Shown here one piece after another: positions 1 to 60,400 of a stretch of 64,000 nt of DNA. The translations under genes were made by a program, and so were the position numbers. Every line of letters begins with the position of its first letter. Positions within the stretch are counted from its first letter, which is position 1. This stretch comes from Candidatus Omnitrophota bacterium (GTDB taxonomy: Bacteria; Omnitrophota; Gorgyraeia; Velamenicoccales; JABMQK01). The notes under the pieces were generated by a model. The model did no database searches and was not told the origin of the DNA. It worked only from the letters and a program-made list of their open reading frames with translations. Location of the stretch: assembly GCA_028711115.1 (NCBI GenBank), contig JAQTSV010000001.1, forward strand, positions 1,496,928 to 1,560,927, written 5' to 3'.

Positions 1-455
1 GCAACAACTTTTCCTTTATGAATTTTGAATATTCCTTTCTGCCATTCTTCTAAAATGCCACGGGATATGCCGTTACCTTGGTCTTTTATGGAAATTATAA
101 ATTTTCCGCCAGATACGGTAACGCTAACGCGTATTTCAAATTGAGATTCAACCGACTCCATCCTTCCCTGTTTTATTTCTTCATTAAAATATGCGTATAC
201 GGCGTCAATCGAATTAGGAATAATGTGCTGTATCATATCTACAATGACAAAATCTAGGTAAAAATTATTCTTTTGTTCTATTATGCGCATGCAGTATTTA
301 TATAATAGTTCTATTATTTTGCTGTAAGCATAAATATAGGAAGTAACTCTTAATTTACCTTTTATCAAACGATCTATCATCTCGGTTTTGCTGATTGACG
401 GGATAAAATAATAAAATATGGAAAAATCCATAACGAGGTTTTCATCCAAGTCGTT
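1..455 (-). other. Module: GHKL (histidine-kinase/HSP90-type) ATPase-like; its C-terminal end runs off the window
   Basis: Peptide IIPNSIDAVYAYFNEEIKQGRMES...ISIKDQGNGISRGILEEW has an N-box-like NSIDA and a DxGxG motif. It is a clear paralogue of 1494-2111. Upstream junction is SASSPM at 456-473. Confidence 0.5.
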
Positions 456-36400: not shown

Positions 36401-39400
36401 CATAAACTTGCTTATGGTATGGAACCATGCCGAAACTCTGGAATGCGCCAGACCTACCCTGCCATGGGCTTTGCGTACTTTCCTTACCGTATTCATATGT
36501 TTCCGTAATCAACAACGTCTCGGGATTACTCTGTCTTGCTTTTTCGCTCATTTCCAGCCAAGGCTCACAAGGCATATACTTCTGAATAAACTCCTCCCAG
36601 CTTATTCCTAATGGCTTTGCCCATAAATCATAGATATGATACCTGAAAGCGGTATGTGCTAAATCTGCGCGCAGACCGCCGTTCAGCGTTAACTTTGCAA
36701 TCTTAGCCAACACTACATTAGCCATATATTGCCGCGCCACCGGGTCCATGTAATTTATCTGGGCCAAATTGCGCATATGATAATCGTTTACGCCTAAACG
36801 GGCATGGTGGATGACAAATCCGGGATTCATCCTCAAAATTTTTCTGCCGAACCTATAGAAAGGACAATTGCCTCGCCGCAACCAACTGGCTAATGACTTG
36901 TCTGAAAAACCCTGGATTCCAGGATATAATTTCCGCGCGACTTTGCAGAATTCATCAAAATCATAACTTAACACTAACCTTGGAACTCTGGAAATCTCCG
37001 GAGAATCAGCGGCAATATGATTGGTCACAAAATCAAATATAACGCTAATTCCTAATTCTTTCAGGTATTCGCAAACCTTCATAAATTCTTCATCGCTGTT
37101 TGCGAATACTCTGTCTAATTCATACCTGCGCACATCATATGCGGATGCCCAACGCTTAACCACCTGCTCATTGTGGCGCCTGCTGTAAACCTGCATAAAC
37201 CAGTTGGACAACTGGCTCTTCTCCCATACTCCCTTAAACCAAATCACACCCACTCCCAAATCAGCGATCCTCTTCCAGAATTCCTGCGGCACATTACCGA
37301 TTGTGCCGTAAGTTGCGGAAAGTGCGCGCGCATCAATTTCCAAAATTATTTTTGTGGAATTTGTTACGGGCGAACTGGCTCTCCCAGCATCTTCTAACTC
37401 TGAAGCCATTTTCTTAAACCAGCCCTTTTCTAATTTCTGGGCTGCACCACGAAGCATTAAATAATAAATCTGCGGCAGGAAAGATCTATGTTCATCTATG
37501 GCTCTGGCGATACTTTTAAAGAAGTTTCTGAATGGACGCGGGGTTGAAAACATCTGCGCTGAAATATTTCCGGTTTCCTGCGGCCTGTCCCATAAAGTGC
37601 GTAAATAGTCAACGGATTCTCTGCCTAATTTTTCTCCTATAAAAATATACAGGTCATAAAACGCGGTTGCCTGGAAAATCAGCCTCTCCCAGAAAAATGG
37701 CCTGCCGCTGGAAAGTAAATTAAGGTATAAAATATTTGCCAGATTATCCTGTCCGCTCACAACTGTAGGCAGGTCATCGCTATAAAGAAACAGTTCGCTG
37801 AAAAGTTTGCGCGGGACCGAATAATCCATAATGATTGTTACCTTGCTGTGTTTTGAAGCATTGAAAACCTTTAATTTCCTTGTCTTCTCGCTATAGATAA
37901 CCAGATTATAGCCATTGCTTTGTGCGATTTCTTTGATTCTCTGTTGTAAATCAGTGTTGCCTCTTCCGCACATGACAAAGAATGTCTTGTCTCCTTTTGC
38001 AAAATCAGGATCTTGTCGTCTGGCTATCTCAAATACCTCAAAATAGCTATTAACAGTAAAGGTTTCATGCGTATAAATAAAACCCCATTCTGAATTTACT
38101 GCTCTTTCAAGGCCGCCTCGCCCTAACAATGATTCCAAAACTTCCCACCCTTCAAATTTCTGAAGGATACGCCTGCGTTCGCCACGGATTCTCTCGTCAA
38201 CCCTCGGATACTTTTGGGAATACAATTTAGCACTCTGGGGTGACACGGGAGCCATACCAACGCAGTCATCTCCCAGCCCAATATGCGCATGGCCGGATTC
38301 CAAAGGATTCTGAAAAACATTCGTAAACCCTAATTCATGGACATAAATCTTTGTCTTGGCCCTGCCGCCCAATATGCTGTAATCAGTCCTGAATACTTCT
38401 CTTTCATTGCTTCCCAGCGCATAAATTATAGAAACGTCGTCTTTTCCAATAATCTTATTCTGGGCGATATACCATGGTTGACTCTCTAAATCTGTGTAGC
38501 CGTCTAATTCCGCTTCTTTTTCTCTAAATCCAAGGCTATATTTTTCTAAATTGATAATTTCTACGCCTTGAATATTTTGCCTTATTAAATCAGGATTGAC
38601 CTGAGGCAACAGTTTTGTTGTACAAAAAAGCCTGAAATCTCCATCTTTGTGGAAAATCACTCTCACTTTTTTGTTGGGGAAAGCGTTATGTAACGCTTGT
38701 GCTGCGTTCACTACGAAAACTATATCTCCCAATCCGGCATATCGTTCATAAAGCACAACATTAATTGCCCCGAAATGATCTGAATTCAAAAACAGATATG
38801 GAGAATCATACTGTATCCTCTGGACCGCCCTAGAGAAATCCCATCCCAAATCTCTTTTGAATATCCTTAAAAGTTTGGCAGCCTGCATCTGTTCAGCATG
38901 TTGTAAGTGTATATGCAATTCTTTTTCTTTTATGCTGACAAAATCTTTCTCTGCGTCAAAATGAATAACAAGTTTATTAAAATTAGCTATATTTTCGTGC
39001 CTTAATAAAATATTAATTGCTGTGAGGATATTTTCGTAAGCTGGCAGTAAAGCCCTTGCGCTCCTGTCAATCCTTTCTTCGTATTTATCGGAGAGATTAA
39101 ATTCTATAATCGGCGAAGAGCCAGATTCATGGGCGCTTTTATGTCCGCTATCATATTGTCTTTCGGACATTATCACAGGCGAGCTGGAGGACTTGATATA
39201 TAAAGATAAGGGCAGCGGTTTTCTTATAAGCGGCAAAGTAGTTAAATCTCCTAAAGCCACTCTTTGGCCTAACTCATGTGGGAATTTCCACCACCAATCT
39301 AAACCTCTTGCCTCTGGCGACTGCTCAGAAGTAAATATCTCTTCATAGGTTAATATTTCTGTTCCTTTAGAAAAACCTAAAGGATGTACAAAAAATGCTG

Positions 39401-42400
39401 CCAATCGTATCAAATCATTTCCTAATAATAAATACCTATCCACTAAGGATAAATTCTTTATTTCTTTATCAGAAAAACCCTTAGCATATAAATATGAGTT
39501 TTCATAAAGCAAGCTTGTTCTCGCAACTAGGAGCATACTTTCTAAATCAGTCAAACCCCCGAAAGAATATCCAGCCCCTGATAAATTTTTATGAATATTA
39601 TCTTGAGCGGGCCTTATTTCCGGGCAGCAATCAAATAATGAGGCATCTCCATAATCTCCCACAAAAATATTAAATACCACTCTTTTTTCTGGCGATATTT
39701 CCACACAGTGCCTGAGTTTTGCCATAATATCTGTAATATCCAACCCAACCACTCTGGGATATAAGAAGGAATATCTTATATGGGACTCATAACTCTTCAT
39801 CGGCGAGCTGGAGGAAGAACTGCCGCTGATTATCTCGCCTGCTTGGCGAACCACGTCATACGGCTGTCGGCTGGTTGTATCTATGAAAGTAATTGTTAAT
39901 CCCTCATATACGCGCTGGGCAAGATCAGCCATTCCTGTTTTATCGTCTAACTTGCTGACAGCCTCTGGCTTCATTTTTCTTCTGCTTGCCCTGACTTCGG
40001 GGCTGGCGGTTAACATTATATTTAAGTCCGCTTCTTCCCAGGGCTTTGTGCTCTTTATAATTACACCGTTAAACGCGCCGCTTGTTTTTACCTTCTCGGC
40101 TAATTCTATTACCAGGCTTTTTACCACAGTTGCAACGCTGGCGAGATTGGCAAACTTATAAAAGAGTAAAGTCATTCCTTCATTTTCGGCAATTTCCCTC
40201 TTTATCTTCATGCTCAATGAGCTTCCGCTTTCGTCAACCACTGCGGTATCATTGCCGTCTATAGTCAAAGGCTCAGAGCTCAAATCAAGCCTCCTGTCAA
40301 CCAAAAGGAATTTCTCTACATATCTGGCTATCCCTGTTTCAATTTCAGGATCATTTATGTTATCGGTATTTATTTTCTTAAATAATTCTGATTCCTTGGC
40401 AAAATAGTAAAATAACACCCTGGCAATAAAACCAAAATTAAGATACCGCAGGCCGTATTCGGCAGCCAAAGCCTTTGCGGCTATCCTTCTGCCTGACGCC
40501 ATAAGCCCGCAGGCGACAAATAACCTGCCTTTTTCAAAACCCTGCGGCAATGTTACGCCTGTTTTGGTGGGAATGCCATTGACCGGTAAACTCAACCTCA
40601 TAGTAAATCTTTTTGCCTTATCGCATGTTGCCTCTACTGTGCCTGCCACGTCTTCAAAATCCTGTTTTAACGCAGCCAGGCCGTAGTGGTAAGATTTTAT
40701 TCCGCGCGCATCTTTGCCTTGCTTTGCAGGAATAAATATTTCGTCTAATTCGCCTTTGCTCATAAATTCTTCGGCTAAATTGCTTACGCTTATCCATATC
40801 CTTCCGAATTTAATTCTTGCATTTATGGTTATTATTTTCTTGCCAGATTTATTTTCTGCGCAATGTTTCATAGCATTTAAAATTACCTCTTCGAGTTTTA
40901 TGGATAATATATCTACGTATGTGAATAAATTCTCATCCAATACGCTGGGTTCAATGCGGACATTAAATTCTATATTGTAGTCTTTGACAAGTTGGTGTTG
41001 TTTGAATTTGTTTATTATGCCTTTTATAAGCCCTCTTATGTTTACAGTTCTAGTTGTGAACCCAAGCCAAACAAAAGAAATCTCTTTAATCATAGTTATA
41101 GTTCTTTCAGTTTCTTCCCTGAATATATCCAGCATTCTTTCTTTTATATTGGCTCTTTCTTTGTTTGCCTCGATCCACTTCAACAATTCCATCTGCGCAA
41201 CAGAAAATACTTGAAGATTATTTTGTAAATAAGCCAATGCGGCCTCGGGGTGTATTGCGCCACCTAAAGCGTCCAACACTTGATCTTCTATCGCCTTATA
41301 GACATCGATAAATTCTTTCAATACGGATTCTTCTTCCGGAATTGCTCTGCTGAATGCGCCTAATGTAATCATGCCAACTGCCTGAAGCGGCTGCTTTATG
41401 TCGTGCAATAAATCTCTTAGCCTCTGTTCTTCCTTTATGGGGCTGGAAGCATTGTGTAATAATTCTATCCATTCCTCGTCCATCCAATCAAACGGCTCCT
41501 TAATTCCTAATTTAGCGATTAACTCTTTCTTGCTCTCTGTGGTTAACATATTGAGATGGCCATCTATAAGCCCTTCGTGAGAAATCATTACTTCACCGAC
41601 CTTGGCAACAGTTCTCGCATGCGAAACAAGCCCTGCTTTTTCTAACTTATCGTAATCAAAACTTATTATTATAGGCTGACTGCAACGGATTAAATCAAAA
41701 CCCTTACTAAAATTATCCGGAGAAAGGTAGTCGGCAACTTCTATTCTATCAAAACCGCCGCTCCCTTCTTCCACATAAGGCATGACTAAATCTCTTGCGT
41801 GCATTGCGGCAAAATCTTTGTTGGTACTGATTGGAATGCGGCCTTTATAAATCTTTCCATCTAAGAGAAGCGATCTCTGTAAAATAGGCGCTATCGTTCC
41901 ATGGTAGTATATCGGCGAGGAGGAATTGTCGCCATCCTGGCGCTCGACTTTCATTCTGAACCTATAATCCATGGCTCTCTTCTCTACTTTTAATGCTGCA
42001 ATTACATTCTCAATACCGCGATTAATTCGGGAAAGCAGATTTTCTAATCTTTCATTGATTACAGCATCATTAATTTCATTCTGCCTTACCAAACTAATGG
42101 CTTTGCTATGTAATCCGAGCGCCTGTTCGTATAAACTTAAAGCCCTTTCGTATTCAGCGCTGTCTAATTCCTGTTTAATGGCATCCTCGAGGATACTTTC
42201 TATTTCTTCTATCAACTTTTCAGTAGCTGCTAAAGGAGCTATAACGGCAAGGCCGCTGGCAATCCTTTGCTCTAACAATAAAACGCCTGTGGCATCCTCG
42301 CCCAAAACGCTAATCCTTGCCTGCGCCCTTTTATATAAAGTCTCCGCTTGCCTGTATTTTTTATCTTTCTGCAATTTTTCTGCCCTGACAGTATCGGCCA

Positions 42401-45400
42401 TTATTCTTCCTAAAACCAAACGGCGCCTATCGCGGCCGGGGTATTTTCTGAAATTTAATATTCTTTGCTGTATTAACGGATGCGAAATAAGATGCCTTAA
42501 GACAATAACTGTATCCTCTCTCGTAAATTCAGATTGATCCTTTAAAGCTTCATATCTTAAATCACCAACCTCGACTATATATAACAGAGCCGCTAATCTT
42601 TCTCTGATTTTTACACCGTTTTCGCCATCAACAGTCCTCCACCAATCCTTAAATAATCCCTCCTGGATATCCGGTAGGTGAGAATAATCTTCTACAATGG
42701 CATTCCATAAAACTCTATCTGACGAATAGCTCTCCATTAATATGCCCCTTACTGCGGAATCTGTTAATCTAGCCTGCTTAGCCATAAGCCCTTGAGCCTT
42801 CTGTCTGTTGGTTCTATATTCAATAACCTTGGCTGCGATATAGGGAATTTCGGCAAAATTTCTAAGATAAAGCAGTGTTTCACGCCTATGAGTCGACATA
42901 TCAGCACTACCTGCTACTTCCTGTCTTTCTAAGGCAATGTCGTTAATAAATTCGCCTTCGGCAATCCTTCTGAGTACTATACTTGCATCCGAAATTAATT
43001 TTAGTTGATCGTGGTAACGGCTGGGATTTATAGCTGCGGGAAATAGATTAATCCAACGCACAAGTTTTTCTCTTTCCGCCTCATCTTTATTCATCCAATA
43101 CAAAACCCAGGCTATATTAGTCCAATCGCCATCCTGCAGCTGTTCTACATATTGCGTTTCTCCTTCAAACAAAGAGACAGCTTCCTGGTATAAGCCAAGA
43201 ACTTCTTTATTTTCGGATAAAATACAATTTATCATTTCATCTAATGCCTTGTTAAATCGCGGCTTGCTTGTTTTAATTTCATAAGGCAATATGCTAAAAC
43301 TTATATCGCGTAAATTAACGATTCCTGAAATAATCCTATATTTATATTCATCCGCAGTAAATAAGGCTTCTGCTGCTTTGAATAACTCAGGGTAGCGCTC
43401 AGACAATATCCTTAAAAGCCACATCATGCGGTATCTCTTAAGTTTTTCATCTGTAACTTTCAAAGGCGAGGAGCAAGATAATCTGAAATCCGAAGGTAAA
43501 TTTTCGTAAAGCTTATAAGGCGCGGTGCGGCGCACAAAGCCATCAGTATCCAGTGCATACCCATGACGCTCAAAAAGTCTTTTATGCTTTTCTGTCGGTT
43601 TAACCTGTGCTGCATGAAAACCTGCCAGATACATCCAAATCTCTACGATATTTTCAATTCCTCTTAAGTCAACGCCGCGCAGATTAACCCGCTCTAAAAC
43701 AATGCTATAAAATACCTGAATTTCTTTTAATATGGCTGCTATCTCCCCAGGCTCTTTTAACAACCCAACAATCCCTGCGTCGCCTATCCCGTATATTCTT
43801 AAAAAGGCGCTGAGCACGTCTACAAAATTTGAGTAGCGTTTTGATAAGAAAATCCTGCTGCTTGGGTCATCTGCGTGATGCAGCTTTAAAACCATCCCCT
43901 TAATATTTCCATCATCAATAAATACATCATTAATAATAATAAAATTCGTAAGACCAAACCTGCCCAAATCTCCACGGAACCCTTTTCCTATTGCATAGAC
44001 AAGGCCCGGAATAGGCTCATTATTTCCGAAACAAATTAGATTATCCTTAAAGATTGTGGTTGATATACCCTGGGGATGTGACCATTTTAAATGTCCGTCT
44101 TCATAACATAAGACATATGAAGAATTGCCCAATAAAGACTCTATATGGCGGTCTTCGCAATCCTGGCAAGTACCTTCTCCCGGCCGCAATAAACTACTTT
44201 CAATTTTGCCTTCTGGGCCTAAGTAAATTCTCCGCGGATACTCATTTTCTGCCCGTTCATCCAAAAGCCCTAATACCAGCCTTGTCATTTCTTTAGCATG
44301 TTCTGAAACTTCCACCGGCGAGCTGGAGCATGGCAAGAATTCGCTTACAGATCTGAGGTCTTTCGGCATTAGCGACTCGGTGACATAAAGACCTTCTTCT
44401 TTTAATTTAACAGGCAATCTAACGGTAACTACAACACCTTTATTTTCATCACGACGATTGCCGATTTTAACACTGCCGCCTAATTCTTTTACAAAAATAC
44501 GATAAACAAAAATAAGACCGAGCCCTGTGCTTGGATATTCTCTTACGCTAAGTCCGGGCAGGAAAAGCAATGAGGGAACCTCTTCTTCGCTTAAACTTCT
44601 AATTTGCTCTTCAGGTATAAGCCTTTCTTCTATAGCAGCTTTAATGACTTTTTCATTATCAATCTGTTTGCCGTCATCTTTAAACGTTAATTCAATTTGC
44701 AAATTATCTTTGTCATCAATCAGATTCAAGTCGATTTCAAGGCAAGTAGTATTTTTATCCCCCCAGAATGCGTTCGCTACCAATTCCGCTATGACATCTC
44801 TAATCGTAGCTTCGCCTATGCCAACCTGGAAACCCGATATGCGTTCATCAATAAACAATTTTATTCCATTATAATGTTGTTCTACGGCTTTTAAGAAATC
44901 GTCTAAATATGCTGTATTTAAATATTCATAAAAACCTTCTGCTATTATCCTTCTGGTTTTAGCTTCAGATGGTCCTATTTTTATCTTTATTATAAGAGCG
45001 GTAATGACTAACAAAATATTTAGCGACAACGCTGCGGTTAAGAAATAAGTAGCCGGCAATGAAATCGAAAGCACATCGGCAATATGCGAAAATACGCTGG
45101 TTAGCGGCGAGCTGGAAAATTTAATACCAGGCCCTTCTGAGATAATCTGGCGCTCGAGGGGCGAGCTGACAGACTCAAGGCTATGTTTAATTCTGCCTAG
45201 GGTTCCCAAAAGGACCTGGCTTTTCGCAAAAAGATTCCAGAACCTGCCACGGTAGGTGGAATCTTGCGAAACAAATCTATTATTTAAGGTAATTGATTTA
45301 TTAAGATTTGATATTTGACTAATTGGGCTGGAGGAATTTGAATTGATTTCCTGACGGCTTGCCTCAATTGCGGAGGAGACGAGGCGGCCGCCTGGAATCA

Positions 45401-48400
45401 CGCCTTCGCTTCTGGGGCTCAATCCTGTTTCTGCCAGATAATCAATTATAGGATTATGGCTTAGCGGCGAGGAAGAAACGGTAACTCTTACATCATCATA
45501 ACCATAATCGCGCATCCAGTGATAAATTTCCAAATCCTGATCAATCTCTTTCATGCCAACCACGGATGCCCTTGCGGTGAGGCCGTATTGATTTTCTCCT
45601 GACAGAGGCGCGGGTAACTCCACTGTTGCAGTATAAACTCTCTGATTACCCTTTGCCGCGGATAAATACATATCTTTTATATCCCATGGCGAGCCGTAAA
45701 TACCATAGTGCAGTTCTACTTTCAGCCTTTCCGGCTCCAAATCTGAATCGACACAGATACGGACTTTATACATAGACTGCGTTTCTGCGATTTTAACACG
45801 GGTTAATCTGTGCATGCCGAAAATCCTGGCATCCTGCCTTATAAAATCGAAAACCCTGTCATAGTCTCTTACCATGCGCGTAATTGTCACTCTTTCATTC
45901 GCCATTAAATAGGACTGGAGCATCATCTCAAGTAGCCTGGGATTACCTGTCTCTCTATGCGCGTAATAAATTTCGGAGGCCTCCTGTAAATATTCGGCCA
46001 ACAGCTCCTGCGCTTTCTTTCTGAAAAATTCCACAATTTCTTCTTTCTGCGGAAATCCATCTTTTAGCTGCATTAATTTTACAATATCTTCAAACAAATA
46101 TTTGCTTCCTGCGAATACATCCATAAGCCAGCCATTGACGCGGTGTATTATATATTCCAACGGACCTGCTGTGAATGTGGCAATATTGAGTCCGCCGCCA
46201 AATGCCGGTCTTTGATCACTGGTACCAGCGGCTTCTCTGGTTGTACGCGGCATACTTACCCACACATTGCTTGCCTGCGTAGCAAGTTTCATTATTTCAG
46301 TTCCTGAGCCGGCAATAAAAATGAACTTTCCTCTGAGCGTTTCATCTTGCGCTATTTCTTTAAATTTCGCAACCCATTCCCTGCCGACCTTATCTCTTCC
46401 CACGCCGCCTACTAAAAGATTCATCCCCAGACCATTTTTCATTCCCCACGGCGTTTCATATTCTCTGTCTCTGTCTCCGGTAATCCAATGTATAAGTCCA
46501 AAAAGAATCCTCTGCTCCTTATAGGCCACGAACCTTCTTACAAGGCCGACTAACGGCCTTCCTAAATCAGAAAAACCATAGCCTACTGCTCGCTCAAGGT
46601 ATTCGTTTAATACCGGTTTTGCAGCTTCCCTTATAATAAATAAATCTTCGCCGGTTATATTTTCACCGCGGGACTTGCGCTCTCTTTCTTTTTCCTGTAA
46701 TTGCCTGCTCTTCCAGATTTTGGGGTCAGAACCGTTAAGTATGCCAATAATCTTTCTGGCAAATTCCGGCAATATCGCTAACTTAGTCACTTTCTTGTGT
46801 TCCTGCGATACACAATTTATAATAACAGCGCGCTCTGCCAGTCTTCTTGCCATATCAACTCTGTTATCGCGCACAATCCAATCAGGAACCATATCTTTTC
46901 CGATATATTCTTTAAGCCAAGCGATATTATCATATACAGGCAAGGCAGCTGCTTCCGGCGTATGCGAAGTTAATTCGACCTTTGTATTTATGTAAATACT
47001 TTTTTCTCCTTTGCCCTTAAAGTAATCGATGTCATTCTGCATAGCCACCAACGCAAATAACAGCTGCGGTTCATTTAGCCTTAAAATATCGGGAGCAACG
47101 CCAAAATATTTGAATAATTCCACATAAACCCTGCCTATAAATGCGAACTGAATAGCCCTATCCGGCTCTTCAGGATACATTACTTTGAATATGAAAGGTT
47201 CATAGGCCAATAATACAGGAGCTCCGTCTCTTTCCCCGATATAGAAATATACAGTATAATTGCAGCCGTTAAATGCCACGTTTATTTTTAACTGTTGGTC
47301 TCTGTCTTTTACTCTGACCATTAAAGGATTAACGCCTTCCTGCTTATTCCAATCAATTAAGTGCAAATTTCCATCGGGGTCTTTATAATGGGCATAACAA
47401 ATCATAAGCCCTAAGGCATTAACGCCTATCTGGCCATACCCGCCGAAAGTCTCTCCTGCCAGAAAACCTAATCCGCCGCTGGCCAAGGCCTGCTGCGCTA
47501 TGGGATTGGTGATTTCAGGCAGGAACGCCTCAAGTGTTACATCCGCCACAAATCTGCCGCTTTCTAATATTCTGGTTAAATTTTCATTTGTTAATACAAT
47601 TTTTTCTGATATCGGACTGGAGGATTGCACCTTTTCCACATATACCATTCTTAGGATTCTTTCTCCGCCAACAGAAACAATCTTAAGGCGGCGGGCTGAA
47701 CCCAGCTTCTGCCAATCCCTGTTTGCTTCTTTAGCCAATTTTATTAGTTCTTTCAAAGTCAAACCAGGAATATTAACCAGTTCTCTTAATCTATCTAATG
47801 AGAAATCCAATAATTCTATCTCCAGCGAACCAGAAGGAAGTTCAATATCTGAAGTATTCAGTTCTATCATTGTCTCTAACGCCAGTATTCTATTGGAAAG
47901 CTCATCCGGCCTGAAAATTCTTGCTATTTGCGCCAGTCGCTTTGCACCAATCCATTTCTGCGCCATAACCATATTTACAGTGAGGCGTTGTTTCTTTGAC
48001 TGCGAAATTATCAGTGAACGCAATGCCTTCTTTGCTCCGGGAGTCAGGGGCAATGAATCTATTTCTTCAACGGTTATGAGATTTATGTCCAATGGATACT
48101 TTTTAAAATATCTTATCTTAATACAATCGTTTATCTTCTGCAGCGCCTTTTCTTCAGTTTGGCTTACTGCTTCTCTTGTCATTTCATAACCTTTTTGCTG
48201 CCCAATCTCTTCTAAAGTATGAATAATACCATCCCTTGTGCCGTTTCTTAACTCCAGCACTTCTATTTCGCGCTGGCTTAATTCTGTAAGTTCGGTGGCC
48301 ATTTCAATGAGTTTACGATAATCTTCAGGATAATTTTCAGATAATAGTTTTAACGTAAGCGAATCAACTGTGGCAAGGGCGCTTATGCGTATCGCCTTTA

Positions 48401-51400
48401 CAATAGAAGCTATTTTTTGTGCATCTGTATCTGATTCTATCGGCGAGGAAGAATCCTGTTGCACAGCTGGGAATGTCCTGTAAGGAATAGCGTATCTTCT
48501 CTGTCCTTCGTCAAAAGGTATTTCTGTGACAGGGAACTGATATCTAAAGGTTTCTTTGTTGGCTGTGGCCCTTATTCCTGCCTTCAAATATAAAGGCATA
48601 TCTTTTATCGCCTCGTACACTTCTTCTAATAATTGTTCTGACGCTAATGCTTCTCTATTAGACAGGCGCAGCAGTAAATCTGTACTCAAAAATGCTGTTA
48701 AAATAGTTTTGGCTCTTTCAAGGCCGGGGAATTCTATAATTCCTCTGGCATTAATATCTAATGCTATGCCTATATTATTCAATAATTCTATCTGCCGGGG
48801 AGTTAGTCCTTTTATATCGTAGTTATATGGCTGGCCTCCATATAACAATTTTACAATCGGCTTGTGGCAATCTTCTGTCAATGCCAATATCAGATAATTG
48901 ACAAAAGCCCTGAATTCTTTCGATTGAGCACCTTTTCCAAACACCTTGTTTACACTCTGCCACAGAGATAAATCCCTCACGGAAAATTCTATACTGCCGT
49001 CTGCCTGGAATATAAATTCTACAGCATCGGGGCATTCATAATGTGGTATATCAATACCTTTTTCTAGTAAAAACTTCCTTGCCCTGCCTTCTTTCCAGAC
49101 AATTGCAAAATCTGAACACGACAACTCTACTCCGCTTTTTCTAAACATCTCCTGAATTTCTGACCAAAGCTCAGCCGTAGCCGTGTGGAGATGAGCAAAA
49201 TATCCGGCGGCGAAAACACGGATTCTTATATCTTTACGGATTAACGTTCTAATCACATTTACATATTGCTCTTTATAAATGGCTTTTGCTTTCTCTACGT
49301 CCCTTAGCGTTATTGGATAATAAAGATGAAAACTTAATTCTATGTTCATATCATAAGGCAAATTGGCTATGCGTTCTGCTGCGCGCTGGCTTATGAGAAA
49401 ATTCTTTCTCCACCCCTGCGTAATAATATTTATTTTAAAGTTGGCTCGATGAAGACTTTCTACCACATCCGCTAAGTCCGCATCCAATACTTCATCATAA
49501 TAATCAAAAGCGTCATTTGCATCATGAAGCAAAATATCGTAACAACGTCTTTCTTTCATTTTCTCTATCATCTTCAAAACAAAAGGATAAGGCATGCTAA
49601 TAGCCTTACCTTTAGCATCTACAAAACAAAATAAACATCCCCTGGGGCATCCCTTTGTTATTGCTAATACAGTATACCTATTACCACCTAATGACACGAC
49701 TTTAAAGAATGCCTCTTGTACGGCATCTGGTATAGAAGCCATAACATCCACAAAAAGCTCTAAATCCAAATCTGTCTTTGAGACGACTGAAACAATCAGT
49801 TTTTGTCTTTCATCTGTTATGTCTTGAGCGCTTAAGCCTTCTGTCTGCCACTTTATAAATTGCGCTAATAAGTCCTTTCCTCTCTGGCTTAATATATTCT
49901 TCTTATCGTATGCGCTTAAAATACGGATTCCTTCGCTGAGTTGTTTCAAAGAAGAATCTTCCAGCGGCGAGGAGGAACGAAGCGACGACGAAGCCTCGCC
50001 AATTTCTGTGGCGGGCGATGAGGAAGAGGGGTCAGAAAGATTTAAAAATGAAGAAGCATCATCATAAAGCTTATAAGGTGCGGCGCGCTGCACAAAACCA
50101 TTTGCGTCTACTGCATACCCATAGCGCTCAAAAAGCTGCCTATGCTCATCTGTGGCTTTAATCTGCGCTGCGTGAAAACCTACCAAGTACATCCATATCT
50201 CTACGATACTTTCAATTTCTCTTAAATCCACACCTCTCAAACTAACCCTCTCCAGGACGCTCTGATAAAATATCTGGATATCTCTTAGTACTTCTGCAAT
50301 ATCCTCGGGGTGTCGTAGCAATTCCACAAGCCCTGCCACATCTTTATCATTTATACCATGTATTTCTAAAAATGCGCTAAGCACATCTACAAAATTTGAG
50401 TGGCGTTTTGCTATGAAAACGGTGCGCTCGGCGGGATATTCTGGCTTATGCAATCTAAAAATCATTCCTTTAATATTTCTGCCGTCAACAAATACATCAT
50501 TAATAATGATTAAATTAATAAGGCCGTGTTTCTCTACGTCTCTATAAACGCCTTTTCCTATTGCATAGACCAATCCGGGGATTGGGTCGTTGTTCCTAAA
50601 ACTAATCAGGCGATGTTCAAAATTTGCGACACCCATAACATCGCGCTGCGACCACTTTAAACGCCCGTCTTCATAACACAAAACAAATGACGAATCGTCT
50701 ATAAGCGATTGGGCATGGCGATTTTCGCAATCTGGACACACATTTACTCCTGGTTCCAAAAAGCTCTTGTCAACTTTACCGGTTGGGCCTAAGTAAATTC
50801 TTCTTGGAAATGCTTGTTCTGCCCGGCTATCTAAAATCTGCAATGCCTCCATTATCCTTTTATCAACTGACTCTTCCAGCGGCGAGCTGGAAACAAATAA
50901 ATAACTACCAGGCCCTTTTGAGCGCTTATCTTTGAGGGGCAAAGATAAGCCATCATCTTGGGTTCCCAAAAGGACCTGGTTTGCAAAGTCTCCATTACCT
51001 GCCACGGTAGGATGGAAACTTCGCGAAAATCTATCTGTATTGCTGACCGGCGAGCTGCCAGTTGTTTTTCCTGATTTTATTATTTGGGCGGGAGATTGTA
51101 ATCTATATGACTTATGTTTTAAACTATCCACTTCTGTTACTAAAGCCAAGCACTCTTTTTCTAATCTTTGAATATCTCTTTTAAAATCGACCACTTCAGG
51201 GGCTCTTTCAATATCATCAATGATTCGCTGTTTGCACACTTCTATTTCTTGTTCTAATTGTTCTATGCGTTCCCTGGCATATGCACTATTGTTCTTTGAT
51301 GTTTTTAATTGATTTAATCTTTGCCTTATCTTTGGTAATTCACGTTGATATTTTTTATTGCTTTCTCTTATGTTAGCTCTTGCGCCTTCTAAGCCAGCCC

Positions 51401-54400
51401 TTGCTTGTCTTAACAGCTTCCTCGTCCGATCCAATTGACCTTGTTTCTGTAAAAGTAAAATTCCCGTGCTAAAAATTGAGCCGGAGATTTCGGCATTGTG
51501 CTCATCCGTTGATTCGGTGATCGGCGAAGAAACAATTATGTCATCTTTGTACTGTTCGTAAAATCTGACAAAATTTAATACGCGTTTTCTCAGAAATTCT
51601 GCGCTTCTGCCTCTGGTAGCAGCAGCATCCAAGAAAGCACAGGTAATCAAGAAGGCAATTACTTCCTGGGCTCTGCCTGGTAATTCAATCCCTCTTACAA
51701 AATTCTGGACTATTCTGAAAGGTATCTCTCCTTGCGGCATTGCGTAGAGCGCGCCGTGGATCCTTATGACTTCCAATAATAAATCTCTATTTGGTAAATT
51801 GCTGGCTAATTCCTCGTGTTCCTCCAGCATCATTACTGACTCGGCTTCGTGTCCCGGATAAGTTATTAGCTTTACGCCAATCTCATTAGTGACTTCTGTG
51901 GGTTTAGTTCTTATCTTTCCTATATCATGTAAAACAATAAATGATTCGTAGAATATTCTGTTCTCCCGAGCAGCCAACATTAGCCTATATCTTAAAGGAA
52001 GTTCTTTGTATTTATCCTGGTTATTGAAAATATCAAGCATGGCCTGGAGATGGTCTCTGAGCAAACGCCCTTCTGCATGATAATTTAAAGGATGATTGGG
52101 TATATTAAAATCAAAATACCGCCTTAATATTGCCGGGATATGTAAATCTATTAATTCTGAAATATCGGTTACCGGCGAGCTCGACTGCGCATCCTGTTTT
52201 AATGCCGCCTCAATGGTAGGTATTAAGCTGGCAGTGCCTTTGAGTTCATAAATCTGTATGTCTCTTTCCATATGGATTATTGGATAGCCTGCGCTCTGCA
52301 ATGTAGTCAGGATGATGTCGCCGCCGACTAATTCAGTGAACAGTGTTTTTGAGCCTTTTTCTGCTTCCCTGACATATACAGGTACGTTGTAAGTCGAAAC
52401 ATTCTGTAAGGCATCCAGCACAAAGGCATGGTTAAATGTGGCTATGGGCTGAGTTTCAAATTTAATGTCCTTGAGGATTCTCTGCAAAGCCAGGCTTTCC
52501 ACAAAGACAACTTCTTTTGTATCCCTGTTGTAGAGTATTGTGCCGCCTTTTTGTATGTGTTTGGGATTTTGTTTGACGTATTCGCCTGCAGCATATAACT
52601 GGCCGTTGGCAAACTGGGGATGGACCATAGCCAAAAAGCCTTCGTTCCAGGGATCCTGACCCCAAGGCCTTAAGTCGCCGATGGTGCACTGGCTGACAAA
52701 TTTAACTCCTCTTTTTCTGGCGTATTCAAGAGAGGAGATGTTGAGCTGATGCAGCCTTCCATCTTTAGGCATAATGATATAGCCTTTGCCAACCAGGGTT
52801 GTTTCAAGCAGAGGTACGCCGTTACCGCCTGCCTTAAATATGCCCGGGGCAATGCTTACTGCCTGGCGTGTGGCAAGCGTGGGCAAGAAGACGGGATTTT
52901 TGCCCTGGGGCTGGATGATAAAACAAGCCCTGTTATAGCCAACGTATTCGTTTTGGATTAGTTCTTGGGCGATCTTTTCTTCATCGCCTTCTGTGCAGCA
53001 GAGGATGAATGTCTGTCTGGCGCGGGCTGCTGCTGTATCAAAATAGCGGGACTTCTGCTCCAATATCCTGGCTAAGATGGAAATATTACGCAAATCATTT
53101 CTTCTGTCTTTTAATCCTCTTATAATATCTACCTCTTCGGGTTTGATTTCTCCCTTGGCTAAAGCTCTTTGGAAGGCTTTTTCCAAAGCCTCATCTGATT
53201 CAGGGCTTAAGAGATGCCTTATGTCTAACAATATCTTGGGTACGCCCAATCCTAACCTGGTGGCGTCTCCGCCTGCAGGAATAAGTACTGCCCATTCGCC
53301 ACCGTAGAGGGATCTTCTGAAGGCAATCCTTGCTGCTTCATCGACCTGGCCTCTCAATACTGCGTCATTGCCGGGTGTACCTGCTAAGCTGACCAGGTTA
53401 GACAGCTGGGGATGTTCATTGAGTTCATCCAGATGATCAAAGATACCTTCGCCGTATTGTGATACCAAAGACACCAGGAGCGCCTGGGTGGCTATAAGCC
53501 ATGATTTATCATTAGTGTAGGAGCTGGCTGAGATGACCAGGGGCGAGGAGGAGCGACGCGTATCGGGCATATTTGGCTGCAAATCTGATATTTTTTCACG
53601 AAGACGTATCTCGCTTTCTCTTAAATTATTTGCGACTAAGGCAGAAACCTCTTCACGTCTAAAATCTTTTAGTCCATCTTGACCTAAGACTGCTATTATC
53701 CTATCCCTATAAAACCAATCTAACCAATTTGTTTCTATGTTATTAACCACTGCGTCCAATAACCCTAAGTGTTCATTGTATCTGTCTCCGTAAAATCCGG
53801 TTAATTGCGGTTTGCCTGCCAGCTTCTTCTTTTCCAGCCCTAATTGCCTGAATACTGCAGTATATATAGGTACCAATCTACCTATCGTAGGATTTCCATA
53901 GTCCAATTCTATTTCTTCTGTCAGACTTAAAAAGTAATAACCGTGTGCATACTTGGTATTGAATTGCAACCACTGGCTTATCTGATAAGCCCTCAAATAA
54001 ATCCTGGCTACAAATTCTGTAAGTAATTTTCCTCCTGTTAAATAGGACTCAAGCCAGCAAGTATGTATGCTGGCAGCTGCCCTATCTAAATTCAGATTGC
54101 CTTTGCCAATCAGTATAGCGCCTGAGAAAAATTCAACCGTTGCCTCAAATTCATCTTCTGATATTTTTGAGATATTCCACTGCTCATCTATAGTATGACT
54201 AAGAATTAACGGACGAACCTGTTCTGATGACTTATCGTCGCTCACCGGCGAACTGGACTGTCTTGCCTTTGCATCCTGTTTTAATGCCGCCTCAATGGTA
54301 GGTATTAAGCTGGCAGTGCCTTTGAGTTCGTGAATTGTAATCGGCCTTTCCATATGGGCAATCGGGTATCCGGCATTCTGGAGCACTGTAAGTATTATGT

Positions 54401-57400
54401 CGCCGCCGACTAATTCAGTAAACAACGTCCTTCTTCCTTGCGAATCCCTGTTTCCTTCCCTGATATATACAGGTATGTTGTAAGTCGAAACATTCTGTAA
54501 GGCATCCAGCACAAAGGCATGGTTAAATGTGGCTAAGGGTTGATTTTCAAATTTAACGGTTGCAAGAATTCTTTTCATAGCCAGACTTTCCACGAATACG
54601 ACTTTTCCTGTAAAAGGATTGTAAAGTACTGTGCCGCCTTTTTGTATGTGTTCGGGATTTTGTTTGACGTATTCGCCTGCGGCATATAACTGGCCGTTGG
54701 CAAACTGAGGATAAACCATAGCCAGGAAATCTTCGTTCCAGGGATCCTGTCCCCAAGGCCTTAGGTCACCTATGGTGCACTGGCTGACGAATTTAACTCC
54801 TCTTTTTCTGGCGTATTCAAGAGAGGAGATATCAAGCTGACGCAATGTCCTGTCTTTTGCAATAATATAACCCTTACCGATCAAGGTTGTTTCAAGTAAA
54901 GGCACGCCGTTACCGCCTGCCTTAAATATGCCCGGGGCAATGCTTACTGCCTGGCGTGTGGCAAGCGTGGGCAAGAAGACGGGATTTTTGCCCTGGGGCT
55001 GGATGATAAAACAAGCCCTGTTAAAGCCAAAGTATTCGTTTTGGATTAGTTCTTGGGCGATCTTTTCTTCATCGCCTTCTGTGCAGCAGAGGATGAATGT
55101 CTGTCTGGCGCGGGCTGCTGCTGTATCAAAATAGCGGGACTTCTGCTCCAATATCCTGGCTAAGATGGAAATATTACGCAAATCATTTCTTCTGTCTTTT
55201 AATCCTCTTATAATATCTACCTCTTCGGGTTTGATTTCTCCCTTGGCTAAAGCTCTTTGGAAGGCTTTTTCCAAAGCCTCATCTGATTCAGGGCTTAAGA
55301 GATGCCTTATGTCTAACAATATCTTGGGTACGCCCAATCCTAACCTGGTGGCGTCTCCGCCTGCAGGAATAAGTACTGCCCATTCGCCACCGTAGAGGGA
55401 TCTTCTGAAGGCAATCCTTGCTGCTTCATCGACCTGGCCTCTCAATACTGCGTCATTGCCGGGTGTACCTGCTAAGCTGACCAGGTTAGACAGCTGGGGA
55501 TGTTCATTGAGTTCATCCAGATGATCAAAGATACCTTCGCCGTATTGTGATACCAAAGACACCAGGAGCGCCTGGGTGGCTATAAGCCATGATTTATCAT
55601 TAGTGTAGGAGCTGGCTGAGATGACCAGGGGCGAGGAGGAAATGACGCTTGTTTTTTCAAAATCCAGAGAGCTGCTTGCCGTTCTATTCAAACGACTGGC
55701 GGGGGTGGTGCCAATGGCAGCCTCCGGATTATTGTTTATTGCTTTGAAATCTTCCGCCACGGTGGAATTCAAAACAACTGGTAAAAATCTATTTGTTAAA
55801 TTATTATTGGTTATAGGTGAGGATGATGACGAGATGAATTCATTTGCGTAATCTGCGGTTATAATTCTGCGTTCTCTGTGGTTCTGACGGCCAGCCTCGA
55901 TGGGTGAAGAGGCGCCGCCTGTAATCGGCCAGCCACGGGCTGAATTGCGTTCCGAAACCAAACCTTTATCAAATGGACTGGAGGATTGCACTTCCTGCTT
56001 CAGCACCCGATAGGCTTCTTCCACTTGCTGTGGAATATTAACGTACACGAGAAATCCCCTGCCTTGTGGGCCATATACATCAGGATGCAAACGATAAACT
56101 TCGCCGATAGCCATAGCAAGCATATATCTGAATTCTTTCTCCTCCATTGCTGCAATATTAGATATTTGCGGAGTAAAGCTGATAAGCGTTAATTTCTGCC
56201 ATTTTCTATTCTCTGCTTCATTAATAATTTTATCAAACGTTGCCATTGCCCTTCTCTGGAGAGCCGGATGCTGCAAGACGACAATGCTTCTAACGGCCTC
56301 ATTGCTGCCTTCCAGGAGCGCTAATGTATTGCGGATATTTTCTTCGCTGTTAGTTGAAGTGGTGTCAATGGCTACAAAATCTTCTTCCGGAATTCCATAC
56401 AGATACAAAATATCCCGATAAATTTCTGCTTCTGATTTTTCTTGTAAGCCTGCTATTTTATCTGCATACTGAGAGCGCTGGATATTCTCTCTTAATAATT
56501 CGGTCTCTCTGCCAATGCCTCCAGCGATTAAAATCCTTCTCGTCAATCCTTGTTTGTGAATGCGCGCTGCTTCTTCGATAACTTCAAGACGGCTACTGCC
56601 CAAAATTAAAAGAATATCAGCGCTTTGTATGCCAAACCTTTCAAATAAAGCTTTTGCGCTCATCTGTGCAACATCCCGCTGCGTAAGAAAATCAAGTAAC
56701 ACCTGTGTCTTGACCCTTAAGTCCACTGTCGGGCTTGAGCTTGTGAAATTATTTCTATCATTTGCTCTGATCGGGCTGGAATTGGTAGAATCATTTCTGT
56801 TTTCTTTACTCTGATTTGTGAGCGGACTGGAGCTTTTCTTCTTTTCTTTATCTAGTAACTCCCGTTTCTTTGCTTTGGCTGCTCGCTTTACTGTTCGATC
56901 TGAATCGTTTAGCATAGCATCTGTGATTTCAATAGATTGGGTAGCAGCTTTGATCTCAACTATATCCAATATCTTCTTTACTTCTTGTAAAGCTTGTTTC
57001 AACTCAGCGTGTTTGCCGGCATTAAAGTAAATAAGCGCTTTGTGCATAAAAGAGTTAAACCTGACTCTATCGCGATCACTCATTTTATCTTTATTTTTCT
57101 CGTATTTGTTAATGAAATCTAGATTTAAGGCTGTTGTATATCTAAGAATATATACCGCTGCAGCATCTAAAGACTGCCTTGCATATTCATAAGACCCATC
57201 GCCAAACCTTATCAGTATATTATGGAAAAATGCCTGGAGAGTGTTTCTATCGGGATTATCCTTAACAGGCATATCATTTTCTTTGCTGGCGTAGTCTTTG
57301 ATAAGCGCTATATATTCTTCTTTCAATTTATTGGCTGTCTTAAGCTCTATAATTTTACCTATCGCAATAAACACTACTATTAAACCTCCGACCACTAATC

Positions 57401-60400
57401 CTATATTGCCCAGCGCGTTCATAGATATTTCTTCTACTATGCCTGGAGCAGGAATAAATACAAATAAATCAGGCGTAGGAACTATAACAAAGATTAAAAA
57501 GGCAAACATGGTTATTATAAAAAACCTAAAGAATATCCAAGTTATTCTTGATAAAACTTTATCTTTTATTTTGGAAACAACAAATAACATAATTATTGCA
57601 GCTATTGCAACAGGCCCCAAGAATATTGCAAAGTTAGCAATTAATACGCTTAATAGTTTTGTAGAAATTCCTGTGATAATAGCTCCTCTCAGAATATAGA
57701 GTAAAACTCCGCCTAAAAACATGCCAGCTACCCCTACAACTGCATCTCCCCAACCCTTCCATATTCTCTTACCAGGTTTTGCTCCGACTAAGAATGGGCC
57801 GATAACCATAGAAATGCCGAAGAAGTAAGAAATAAATAAGCAGATGGCATTGGTGAAATCCAAGCCTACTGCGAAAGCAAATATGGTAATAGAGCTGATA
57901 AAAACACCGAGTATAACCTCGCCTCTGAGAATATTAAGGTATCCGCCTTTCATAAACTTACCAATAAAAGGAATTCTGCCGGGAATAGAACTGCTCCCAA
58001 TAAGCAGACCTAAGGTTAAACAAATGGGGATCATAATAGAAACGATTGGCGCAACCGCACCGAATTTCATTGTAATAGCTATACCCGCGGCGAGACCAAA
58101 AATTGCGCCTACTATTGGCAGTATAATACTGCGCATCCAATCCGCCTTAGTTGGTTCTCCCATACTAGTATCTTTCTTGACTACCCAGTATTCCTTCAAT
58201 ACGTTGCAATTATCATAGCCTGCAATAGCTCCAGACGTTACAAATATCCAAGGCACTCCTTTATAGCTTCGTATTTGAGCCAAGGTTTCAATGGCAAAAC
58301 GATGAGCGAAAAGTAATATATCTCCGGGCCGCTCACTAAACCAGCGGGCAGTAGCCATCCAAGAATTCGTAAGCACAAGACCAAAGAATGCGAAAATAAT
58401 GATAGTGGGCCAGCTCGCTCCAACCACAAAAGCTAATAAGGCTGCTACAGTCATACCAACAAATGCTTTCCAGGTCTTTATGCCGGACATAGCTTTTGCA
58501 GTAGCGCCCAATCCGTTCAAAGCTGCTATCTGGTTAAATAATGTTCCGATGATAAGAAAGATAAATGAAATTCCTACGAATGGCAGTATATCTAAAATTA
58601 TACCCACAGGTATAAAAATGATATTCAATAATGCCAATGGCATAATCGCATAGAAATCTTGCACATTGCGCCTTGCCTCTTTTTCAAACCACGACTCAGG
58701 CCCTAATTCGCCTATATTCTGCAGAATAAAATCGCTTAACATATTGGTTAAGCCTTCTGACCAGCGCACTGTAGCACTGCCTTCTTCGCCAGGGCTAAGC
58801 CATTCCCTTAATTTAGACCATATAGCTTCTGATAACGCGAATTCCGGCCTCTGGCCTAAACCAATGGCATTATGTGTTTGTGCCCAGATATCAGCGGTAT
58901 CTTCGCTGGGATGCGGTAAGTGCGGGCCAAGGCCTATAATTCCGTAACGATACCAATCGGCATATTCAGAGAAATTATATATCGTTTGTGCATCTATTGT
59001 AATAGGCATAACAGGAAACATATAATTGAGCATTGCCGTTAAATATCCTTCCGGACCCTGATCCATCATTCTCTCGAAGTTACCCCAACCAGAGCACAAC
59101 TTATCGTTTAAAGACCACATAGAATATCCGTGCCCGCCTTCGACTAACCACGACATCCTGCCCATATGCATAAGCCTGTTAGAGGTATTACGGGAACTTG
59201 TCGTTAGAATAAGATTGTCGTTGCTCATCATCCTCTTTAAATCCCGGATAAATGCGGGTAAATCCAGGCAGTTACTATTACGGTCCATAATGGCTAAAAT
59301 CTTAAAATTCTTAACTATCTTGTGTGGCAATGTTTCCATGCTGACCATTGCTCCGGATTTAGCAGCAAATACAGTGAATGTATGTATAAAATAGCTGCTG
59401 CTATTATCATTGCCTAACAAATAATCCACCAGCTTCATCATCTTCATATAATTAGCAAACTGGGGTGGTACTTCTTTGCCTTTTTTAAACAATTTTTGCC
59501 AGTTTGAAGTAGGTATAAAACAGAAATTATTTCCCCAGCCTTGTGCCCTTATCTCTTTTAGCATTGCCATAATATTAACAAGCACATCGAATGAGCCCGC
59601 GCCTCCGCCTAACGGCTTTACACCGCCAACTTTGATAAAGAAAAATGTCTTTACAAAGAAGGCTATTTTAAGTTTCTCTTTTTGTGCTTTTTTAGTCTCT
59701 TCGTCGAATTCTTCGTCTAATTTGATTTTGCAATTCTCTGGAATTTTATCATCTTCTATCTGGTCTAAAATACAAAGATCAATCCCGGATGCTTTTTCTC
59801 TCTCGGCTAATAACTTAAGGCATTCTTCTATTAGCTTCCAGAAATCTTCATCTTTCATATTTGCCTGTAGGCCAAGCTTTATGGCTGCCCATTCTCTTAA
59901 TTGTTTTAGCGCAACTTCGGCGCCCAAATCGTCGTTTTCTAATAACCAGTTTAAAGCCCTGATTATAGATTCTGTATCTGTGCCGGCTCCATCGTTGGCG
60001 AGGAAATGACCGACGTAATTTAATAAAATCTTTTTACCATCGCGTAAAAAGCCCTTGATTTTATCTTCATCAATCTTTACTCTTTTCATTGGGCCAAAGA
60101 TTATACCGGTCAGATACTGTATCAATGACCATATACCATAATGCATAGTAGTCAAAATGAGCAGCGTAGTAAGGTTGGCGCCGATTAGCCTTGTAATCAA
60201 GCCGCTTGCGACGTGGTCTATAAACCAAGGCATACCCACCCAGAACATCAATAAACCCAATGCATTAAATATAACATTATGGGCGATAATCATGCCTATT
60301 GTCCTGTTTCTGCCCGGCCCGATTGTCGGTCTCCAATCACGATAGATAGAAAGGGCGATGACAGAATGTTTCCAGAATAAGTAACCATACGCTTCCAATG

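Follow-up and report, generated by a model that had tools for sequence, protein, structure and literature searches.

A conserved block read in two codon phases

How can the most conserved stretch of a repeated element be translated in two different codon phases within one uninterrupted reading frame, and what is being conserved when this happens? The question is raised by a stretch of 64,000 nt of a Candidatus Omnitrophota genome (contig JAQTSV010000001.1 of assembly GCA_028711115.1, positions 1,496,928 to 1,560,927; hereafter the window), whose minus strand is occupied by a single giant open reading frame (ORF) encoding many enzyme modules, and which carries four copies (c1 to c4) of a short stem-loop element in the linkers between those modules. 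A fifth copy (c5) was found in another sample. The computational analysis presented here indicates that this element is probably a structured RNA embedded in frame in the linkers of the giant gene, selected as RNA, portable, and a candidate for action in cis.

The 14-mer CCTGCCACGGTAGG occurs exactly three times on the plus strand of the window, at 1422, 45243 and 50998 (and nowhere else even with up to two mismatches, for which 0.13 matches are expected by chance; none of 100 shuffles reached three). An earlier note on this DNA had claimed that this block is translated in two phases, and every coordinate was confirmed to the base: the first two starts are 0 mod 3 and the third is 1 mod 3, and a recheck disclosed no error of position or phase. 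The blocks on either side are in identical phase in all copies, as had also been proposed, with GGGTTCCC starting at 1379, 45200 and 50960 (all 2 mod 3) and AAATCTAT at 1452 and 51027 (both 0 mod 3). Spacing differs between copies 1 and 3: from GGGTTCCC to the 14-mer it is 43 and 38 nt, respectively, and from the 14-mer to AAATCTAT 30 and 29 nt. These spacings correspond to one 5-nt and one 1-nt indel, 6 nt in total, and the flanks of copy 3 stay in one phase because this copy carries a 1-nt plus a 5-nt deletion, so that the two compensating indels that had been postulated are real. The same holds for the complete change of the intervening peptide, which on the minus strand is NRF-ISQDSTYRGRFWNLFAKN-QVLLGT in copy 1 and DRF-SRSFHPTVAGNGDFAN-QVLLGT in copy 3.

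A covariance-model alignment places the 1-nt gap in the single-stranded leader immediately 5' of hairpin A, the first of the two domains of the element, and the 5-nt gap in the lower 3' arm, where c1 and c2 hold five extra bases. From these positions it follows that the shifted segment is exactly hairpin A. If copy 3 is read in the phase of copy 1, a UAA comes directly after the 14-mer (SYRGR*) and, thus, copy 3 is open only in the other phase; the remaining sense frames of the element copies contain stops. The earlier note had advised looking for further copies, and these fell on both sides, since the fourth is in the phase of copy 3 and the fifth (on contig L006) in that of copy 1. Altogether, the core is read Y-R-G in c1, c2 and c5, and T-V-A in c3 and c4 (two phases, five copies).

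Two statements of the earlier note stand only in part. The 14-mer is indeed invariant as a conserved block but it is not the sole one, the 20-mer CCAGGTCCTTTTGGGAACCC being likewise identical in the three window copies c1-c3 and in L006, that is, in four copies from two samples. In addition, the phase shift had been presented as direct evidence that selection acts on the nucleic-acid structure, with the peptide needing only to stay open. This interpretation is upheld because several tests converge on it, as described below, and not by the frameshift alone, which is insufficient and does not amount to direct evidence.

Architecture and copies of the element

The element is a two-domain fold of 150-180 nt on the sense (mRNA, minus) strand, in frame and stop-free (Table 1). 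It opens with an AU-rich single-stranded leader (AAUAGAUUU or GAUAGAUUU in the four window copies) that is followed by hairpin A, made of a stem of 13-15 bp, a small internal loop, an apical stem of 2-4 bp (ACC/GGU) and a GUGGC(A) loop cap, and with an invariant apex, ACCGUGGC. Domain B starts 1-2 nt after hairpin A. Its stem, which in c1-c3 consists of 15-17 bp with CCAGGUCCUUUUGGG paired to CCCAGAAGGGCCUGG and in c4 has another sequence, closes a junction that holds hairpin B2, whose C-rich loop is CCCCU, and optionally a hairpin B1. The element ends in its own codons for a serine-serine-proline (S-S-P) motif followed by leucine, thereby forming a mini-module like the real protein modules. 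In fact, every window copy sits in a short mini-module with S-S-P at both ends, and the stretch that the copies share begins directly past an S-S-P and reaches to the following S-S-P-L.

Table 1. Features of the window (numbering from its first letter; c1 to c4, copies of the element)
Feature	Coordinates	Strand	Remarks
c1	1283..1462	minus	Leader AAUAGAUUU; hairpin A 1399-1452; domain B 1297-1398; trailing S-S-S-S-P codons; model R2, 197.5 bits
c2	45104..45283	minus	85% identical to c1, flanks unrelated; repeat family D8
c3	50885..51037	minus	Without sub-hairpin B1; hairpin A and B2 stems rebuilt
c4	55640..55795	minus	Leader and two-domain architecture kept; phase of c3; model R1, 60.2 bits
14-mer CCUACCGUGGCAGG, apex of hairpin A	1422..1435 (c1), 45243-45256, 50998-51011	minus	
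8-nt core ACCGUGGC of the 14-mer in c4	55756-55763	minus	
Flagged segment, hairpin A of c3	50980..51026	minus	One phase off c1 and c2; flanked by the 1-nt and 5-nt deletions
S-S-P codons closing the c3 mini-module	50880..50888	minus	Upstream S-S-P at 51048-51056
Example S-S-P sites	61232, 51056, 50888, 45332, 45113, 1490, 1292	minus	
Type-2 hairpin sites	2169..2200, 45351-45394, 55884-55921	minus	
Host ORF	3..63998	minus	21,332 codons; runs off both window ends; Omnitrophota-type multi-enzyme giant gene

Copies c1 and c2 are 85% identical and yet their flanking modules are not paralogous, the element being the only similarity between the loci of the copies. The fourth copy was recognized by a further occurrence of ACCGTGGC (55756-55763, minus strand) 30 nt after another AATAGATTT; its stem sequences are entirely different, and sequence conservation is limited to ACCGUGGC and the leader. 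It is unchanged in an independent NCBI assembly of a Candidatus Omnitrophica metagenome-assembled genome (L003, contig JAQTLW010000005.1 of GCA_028714715.1), which is 99.5% identical to the window from 53426 to 64000. The fifth copy lies at positions 655-835 of contig L006 (ENA ERZ27250208, also Logan SRR7617176), within an unrelated 331-aa ORF of another sample whose flanks match nothing in the window, and carries the exact 15-mer CCTACCGTGGCAGGT and the 22-mer AACCAGGTCCTTTTGGGAACCC. Considering that the flanks are unrelated in all five copies and that two samples are involved, we infer that the element is a portable linker cassette.

As to L006 itself, its ends (1-36 and 1158-1194) are Illumina adapter, and it represents an adapter-contaminated assembly of about one fragment. 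Its ORF is already open where the insert begins and meets a real stop 250 nt after the element, and the last module follows an S-S-P-L.

Searches of the window, of L003 and of two other Omnitrophota giant-gene fragments (L004 and L005) with nhmmer and covariance models yielded no copies beyond c1-c4. Scanning for the conserved blocks produced one chance match each in the genome and metagenome contig collections (L001 and L002, both without the element) and none in a viral contig collection. With the c1 peptide as query, a word-indexed search of 5.8 billion proteins gave no match, and an exhaustive HMMER search of 1.84 billion protein representatives gave one true match, P0025, which is encoded on contig L006. 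The remaining HMMER matches were discarded as spurious, being translated CRISPR arrays or repeat proteins. Among them, P0022-P0024, P0029 and P0030, with the repeats CNSTYRLRYWN, LQQYLPFTVLK and VATVLTVYGIET, matched the element peptide by chance only; they look like a single CRISPR array translated in three frames, apparently with TGA taken as a Trp codon. That the element could itself be a CRISPR repeat was also discarded: the repeat of that array shares about 15 of 27 nt with it (an estimate from back-translation by hand), and the copies of the element are 5-44 kb apart in the ORF.

Known RNA families did not account for the element either. Rfam 15 gave no match in the whole window at gathering thresholds. 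When three element regions were searched at E up to 5-10, the matches were weak and fell far short of the gathering scores. ARAGORN found no tRNA or tmRNA, and a promoter and terminator scan revealed no enrichment and no U-tract after either domain. A likeness to the P4 motif of RNase P (GGAAAGUCCGG) on the plus strand was confined to c1 and was taken as coincidence.

Constraint on the RNA and on the peptide

The sense strand had a lower minimum free energy than the antisense strand in all five copies, with sense z-scores ranging from -4.6 to -7.1. The sense and antisense values were -78.5 and -76.8 kcal/mol in c1 (sense z, -6.9), -65.6 and -58.0 in c2 (sense z, -4.6), -65.0 and -50.9 in c3 (z, -7.1 and -3.95), -49.1 and -38.8 in c4 (z, -4.57 and -0.38), and -76.2 and -58.0 in c5 (z, -5.7 and -1.0). 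Domain B alone accounted for -34 to -54 kcal/mol. The sense helices contain 20 G·U pairs and one A·C mismatch, and the antisense folds nine A·C mismatches. In two sliding-window folding scans, the strongest structure outliers of the 64 kb were the element copies. The idea that every junction between modules is structured was thereby rejected, as only these copies stood out strongly and L004 and L005 were devoid of comparable islands.

A further sense-strand structure outlier is found at 53951-54150 (minus strand; 15201-15350 in L003), with -50.6 vs -30.6 kcal/mol in antisense. It lies just downstream of an S-S-S-P at 54254 and its sequence is unrelated to the element.

The stems of hairpin A differ among c1, c3, c4 and c5 and yet keep pairing. 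Similarly, the B2 stems built around the same CCCCU loop are GAGUUCG/CGAACUC in c1, GCUCG/CGAGC in c2, CUUAUCUUUG/CAAAGAUAAG in c3 and CAGCUC/GAGCUG in c5. Between c1 and c2 there are three double-compensated pairs (P ~0.01 in a simulation with random placement). When c1, c2, c3 and c5 were aligned by fitting to the model, 89% of the cells were paired as compared to at most 58% with the partners slid, and five pairs showed double changes vs 1.9 in shuffles. By eye, no helix joining the leader to the 3' tail could be traced consistently through the copies, and neither could loop-loop or pseudoknot pairing of the 14-mer, the CCCCU loop and the type-2 hairpin (described below) with one another.

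With regard to the peptide, the ratio of nonsynonymous to synonymous substitution rates (dN/dS) between c1 and c2 was 0.73, with 11, 7 and 8 differences at the first, second and third codon positions; for seven duplicated protein modules of the same ORF it was 0.09-0.39, with an excess of third-position changes. Within the conserved blocks, third codon positions are invariant (four copies, two samples), and Pfam has no family for the element peptides or for those of the type-2 hairpin. The view that the encoded peptide is an unconstrained spacer that needs only to stay open is thus supported, and so is the view that what selection maintains is the RNA fold of the sense strand along with a few blocks of sequence. 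It is this lack of constraint on the peptide that would have allowed two compensating indels to move hairpin A into another codon phase. Moreover, both the loop and the 15-bp stem are conserved in sequence, which shows that selection covers more than the fold alone.

The S-S-P motif at module boundaries

The S-S-P tripeptide that delimits the mini-modules is found 65 times in the ORF, vs about 4 expected by chance (an estimate from amino-acid composition). It is mostly preceded by a further Ser and nearly always followed by L, I, V or M, its spacing resembles gene lengths, and it marks nearly every module boundary. The serine codons are a mixture of AGY and TCN and, therefore, S-S-P is a peptide-level motif, selected at the protein level. 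It is also present at module ends in relatives (P0001, P0002 and P0019), and L005, which is a fragment of a different Omnitrophota giant gene, has 16 of them in the form [AVS]-S-S-P-[ILVM] with similar spacing. The module duplications of the ORF likewise start at S-S-P boundaries. S-S-P-[LIVM] is a candidate processing or cleavage site. A role of S-S-S-P-[LIV] in internal starts found no support: Pro is mostly followed by an ATA, ATH or CTN codon, and no Shine-Dalgarno sequence is conserved.

Possible function and alternative explanations

The invariant loop and 15-bp stem point to recognition by a specific partner, as a plain decay barrier or pause needs no such conservation. In the manner of the REP, Correia and ERIC repeats of polycistronic mRNAs, the element may act in cis on the giant transcript as a pair of stem-loops recognised by a protein, with the conserved loop and stem sequences as the recognition surface, and the target of this action could be the processing of the giant mRNA, the stability of its segments or the transit of ribosomes. 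A protein-recognised cis-acting element of this kind is our preferred reading of the function, but a tentative one, with well under an even chance of being right. A broader scheme, improbable as a whole, would be a two-layer punctuation ("operons in one reading frame") in which the S-S-P-[LIVM] peptide mark stands at every boundary and RNA cassettes at some. Each cassette would then comprise a type-2 hairpin, an AU-rich spacer and the element (type 1), and a specific factor would recognise it in order to divide the >64-kb mRNA into segments, stabilise it or pace it; the S-S-P-bounded cassette peptide would be excised and discarded, leaving the sequence free to evolve as RNA.

Several observations weigh against a structured RNA selected for the benefit of its giant gene. 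The element is present at only 4 of the 65 S-S-P sites of the window, and the two other Omnitrophota giant-gene fragments (L004 and L005; 34 kb) have neither the element nor a comparable structured island. This absence means that giant-gene expression does not depend on the element in general, and it would fit a selfish repeat equally well. The advantage of sense over antisense is small in c1 (1.7 kcal/mol), the covariation statistics come from 4-5 sequences in an alignment that was fitted to the model, and the sample is of five copies, four of them from one genome. Finally, the simplest forms of cis action (a decay barrier or a ribosome pause site) would need no sequence conservation such as that observed.

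The alternative that survives best is a purely selfish in-frame repeat, similar to a Rickettsia palindromic element (RPE) or a MITE (a transposable element of the miniature inverted-repeat kind), that spreads among the permissive linkers of long ORFs. According to this explanation, only the insertions that keep the frame survive, and the fold serves the propagation of the element or is a by-product, and does not serve the host. We consider it unlikely, albeit a serious contender. It accounts for discrete copies with unrelated flanks in every case, for the sporadic distribution among the S-S-P sites, for the absence from L004 and L005 and for the presence in a second sample. It also agrees with the protein P0001 (51% identical), which has no element after the homologous module, although the downstream module differs too and P0001 is not a strict orthologue. 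Furthermore, in-frame insertion into ORFs is known for RPEs (PMC10969869). However, no terminal inverted repeats were seen, the helices being internal and arranged in two side-by-side domains, and a target-site duplication was tried and rejected, as the S-S-P sites flanking each copy are no more alike than random S-S-P pairs. Nor would a DNA-level transposition signal predict the strand-specific G·U excess and the better folding of the sense strand. The compensatory changes between c1 and c2 imply a continued selection for pairing, though diverged master copies could also yield them.

A signal acting as DNA, that is, a single-stranded or cruciform recombination site (attC-like or REP/RAYT-like) that shuffles the modules of the giant gene, would fit the fact that both the module duplications and the element unit start and end at S-S-P boundaries, as well as the conservation of apical and flanking hairpin sequences. 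Nevertheless, the twenty sense G·U pairs become A·C mismatches on the other strand and G·T mismatches in DNA, and no recombinase, transposase or integrase domain was found in the 21,332 aa (E<1e-3), although much of the ORF has no Pfam match at all. We find this explanation very unlikely.

We also give little credence to a translational recoding or pausing signal, be it a frameshift stimulator, a SECIS-like element, a bypass site, or a pause for the folding or cleavage of modules. Such a signal is suggested by the great stability of the structures (-34 to -54 kcal/mol for domain B), by their location in the translated frame just past a module boundary, and by an A AAA AAU placed nine nucleotides before the hairpin in c1. 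But this slippery heptamer is missing from c2, c3, c4 and c5, the other sense frames soon reach stops, there is no in-frame UGA or UAG in the whole 21,332-codon ORF, most junctions are without structure, and pausing alone would not need conserved loop sequences.

Lastly, a conserved peptide or small domain, hinted at by the QVLLGT, GPG and SSPLE motifs that recur in the peptides of several copies, and a chance match or assembly artefact are effectively refuted. Against them stand the core read in two phases, the dN/dS value, the invariant third positions of the conserved blocks, the lack of a Pfam match, a 14-mer count far above chance and the identity of c4 in an independent assembly; nor are two indels that offset each other and leave a frame of 64 kb open sequencing errors.

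Comparison with known systems

RPEs are short (~100-150 bp), hairpin-forming dispersed repeats that are found in frame inside genes and encode a peptide without known function (PMC10969869). Compared by description only, RPEs and intragenic MITEs resemble the element, which is also short, hairpin-forming, dispersed, in frame and stop-free within a coding ORF. It differs from them in having two adjacent internal domains with conserved loops in place of terminal inverted repeats or a target-site duplication, in being under RNA-level selection on the sense strand with its core read in two codon phases, and in that all the window copies are in S-S-P-bounded linkers of one giant gene.

REP sequences act as barriers to 3' exonucleases and, like the Correia and ERIC repeats and the element described here, they form stable stem-loops on the strand that is transcribed, lying between the coding units of a long message. 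All these repeats are intergenic and untranslated, whereas the element is translated in frame and its "operon" is a single ORF. The REP/BIME, Correia (nemis) and ERIC families are known to alter the stability of transcript segments or to be targets of cleavage by RNase III or RNase E (PMC10969869).

With SECIS elements, frameshift stimulators and the cis elements of RNA viruses, the element shares an RNA fold conserved inside an ORF and a nucleotide constraint that overrides codon patterns. In contrast to them, it has no UGA or conserved slippery sequence, and is repeated and portable rather than bound to one fixed site. Its closest kinds are the in-frame palindromic repeats and the transcribed intercistronic repeats, from both of which it is set apart by its architecture, its niche and an RNA constraint specific to one strand.

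These findings bear on the question of how bacterial genes of 60-400 kb are transcribed, translated and matured, with cleavage of the transcript or of the product into pieces being a question raised in the giant-gene literature. They offer two testable handles on giant-gene processing, a sense-strand RNA element of module junctions that is clearly under selection at the nucleotide level, and a pervasive S-S-P-[LIVM] motif. The compensated frameshift is, in addition, a clean textbook case in which RNA-level and protein-level constraint are parted within a translated region. Should the element be merely selfish, it would extend in-frame selfish DNA of the RPE type to a new phylum and to a new niche, the linkers of giant genes.

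An associated hairpin family

A second in-frame hairpin (type 2) consists of CAGGCGGC, a variable inner stem and GCCGUCAG, and gave three matches vs 0 expected. Upstream of the type-1 element, it is separated from c2 by 68 nt, from c4 by 89 nt and from c1 by one 211-aa module, and it is absent before c3. The peptide is roughly (G/D)WPI(T/S)GG...RQ and the inner stems carry compensatory differences; the folding z-score over the whole type-2 mini-module was not significant. The association of the two types suggests a composite unit and is unlikely to be due to chance.

The host gene

The minus frame that hosts the element contains no stop over its 21,332 codons, as opposed to hundreds in each of the other five frames. 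In L003 the open frame is prolonged by 5.3 kb upstream and, accordingly, the gene is at least 69 kb long. Along the ORF, Pfam identified iPGM, PPDK_N, nitroreductase, radical SAM and several methyltransferase domains, together with GNAT, amino-acid kinase, RNHCP, HATPase_c and alpha-amylase domains, and the homologues of the ORF are Candidatus Omnitrophota proteins with 40-55% identity. Tens of kb of ORF, many unrelated enzyme domains and Omnitrophota homologues are the traits tested for assignment to the Omnitrophota giant genes, and the host displays all of them. It resembles this group (Archaeovorins, or the "multi-enzyme metabolic cluster" class) in its >64 kb without a stop and in its tiled, unrelated enzyme domains. 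The "multi-enzyme" class of Omnitrophota giant genes has been described in two preprints (bioRxiv 10.1101/2023.11.21.568195; 10.64898/2026.06.07.730766), one of which states that the cleavage points are not known. Text searches of both for "SSSP", "hairpin", "linker" and "RNA structure" found no occurrence.

The ORF also bears a tandem duplication at about 52180-56400 (minus strand), in which a two-module unit of 2,088 nt (aa 2790-3486 and 3486-4159) is repeated with up to 96% nucleotide identity. This duplication begins exactly at an S-S-S-P-L boundary and the L003 assembly breaks within the repeat; further paralogous module pairs are present elsewhere in the ORF. The first ~2,400 aa in the window (61224-63998 region; L004, P0019) contain just one S-S-P and have their homologue in the N-terminal "head" of a different Omnitrophota giant protein, GH5-mannosidase-like and with transmembrane segments. 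The train of enzymes punctuated by S-S-P therefore begins after a conserved head region.

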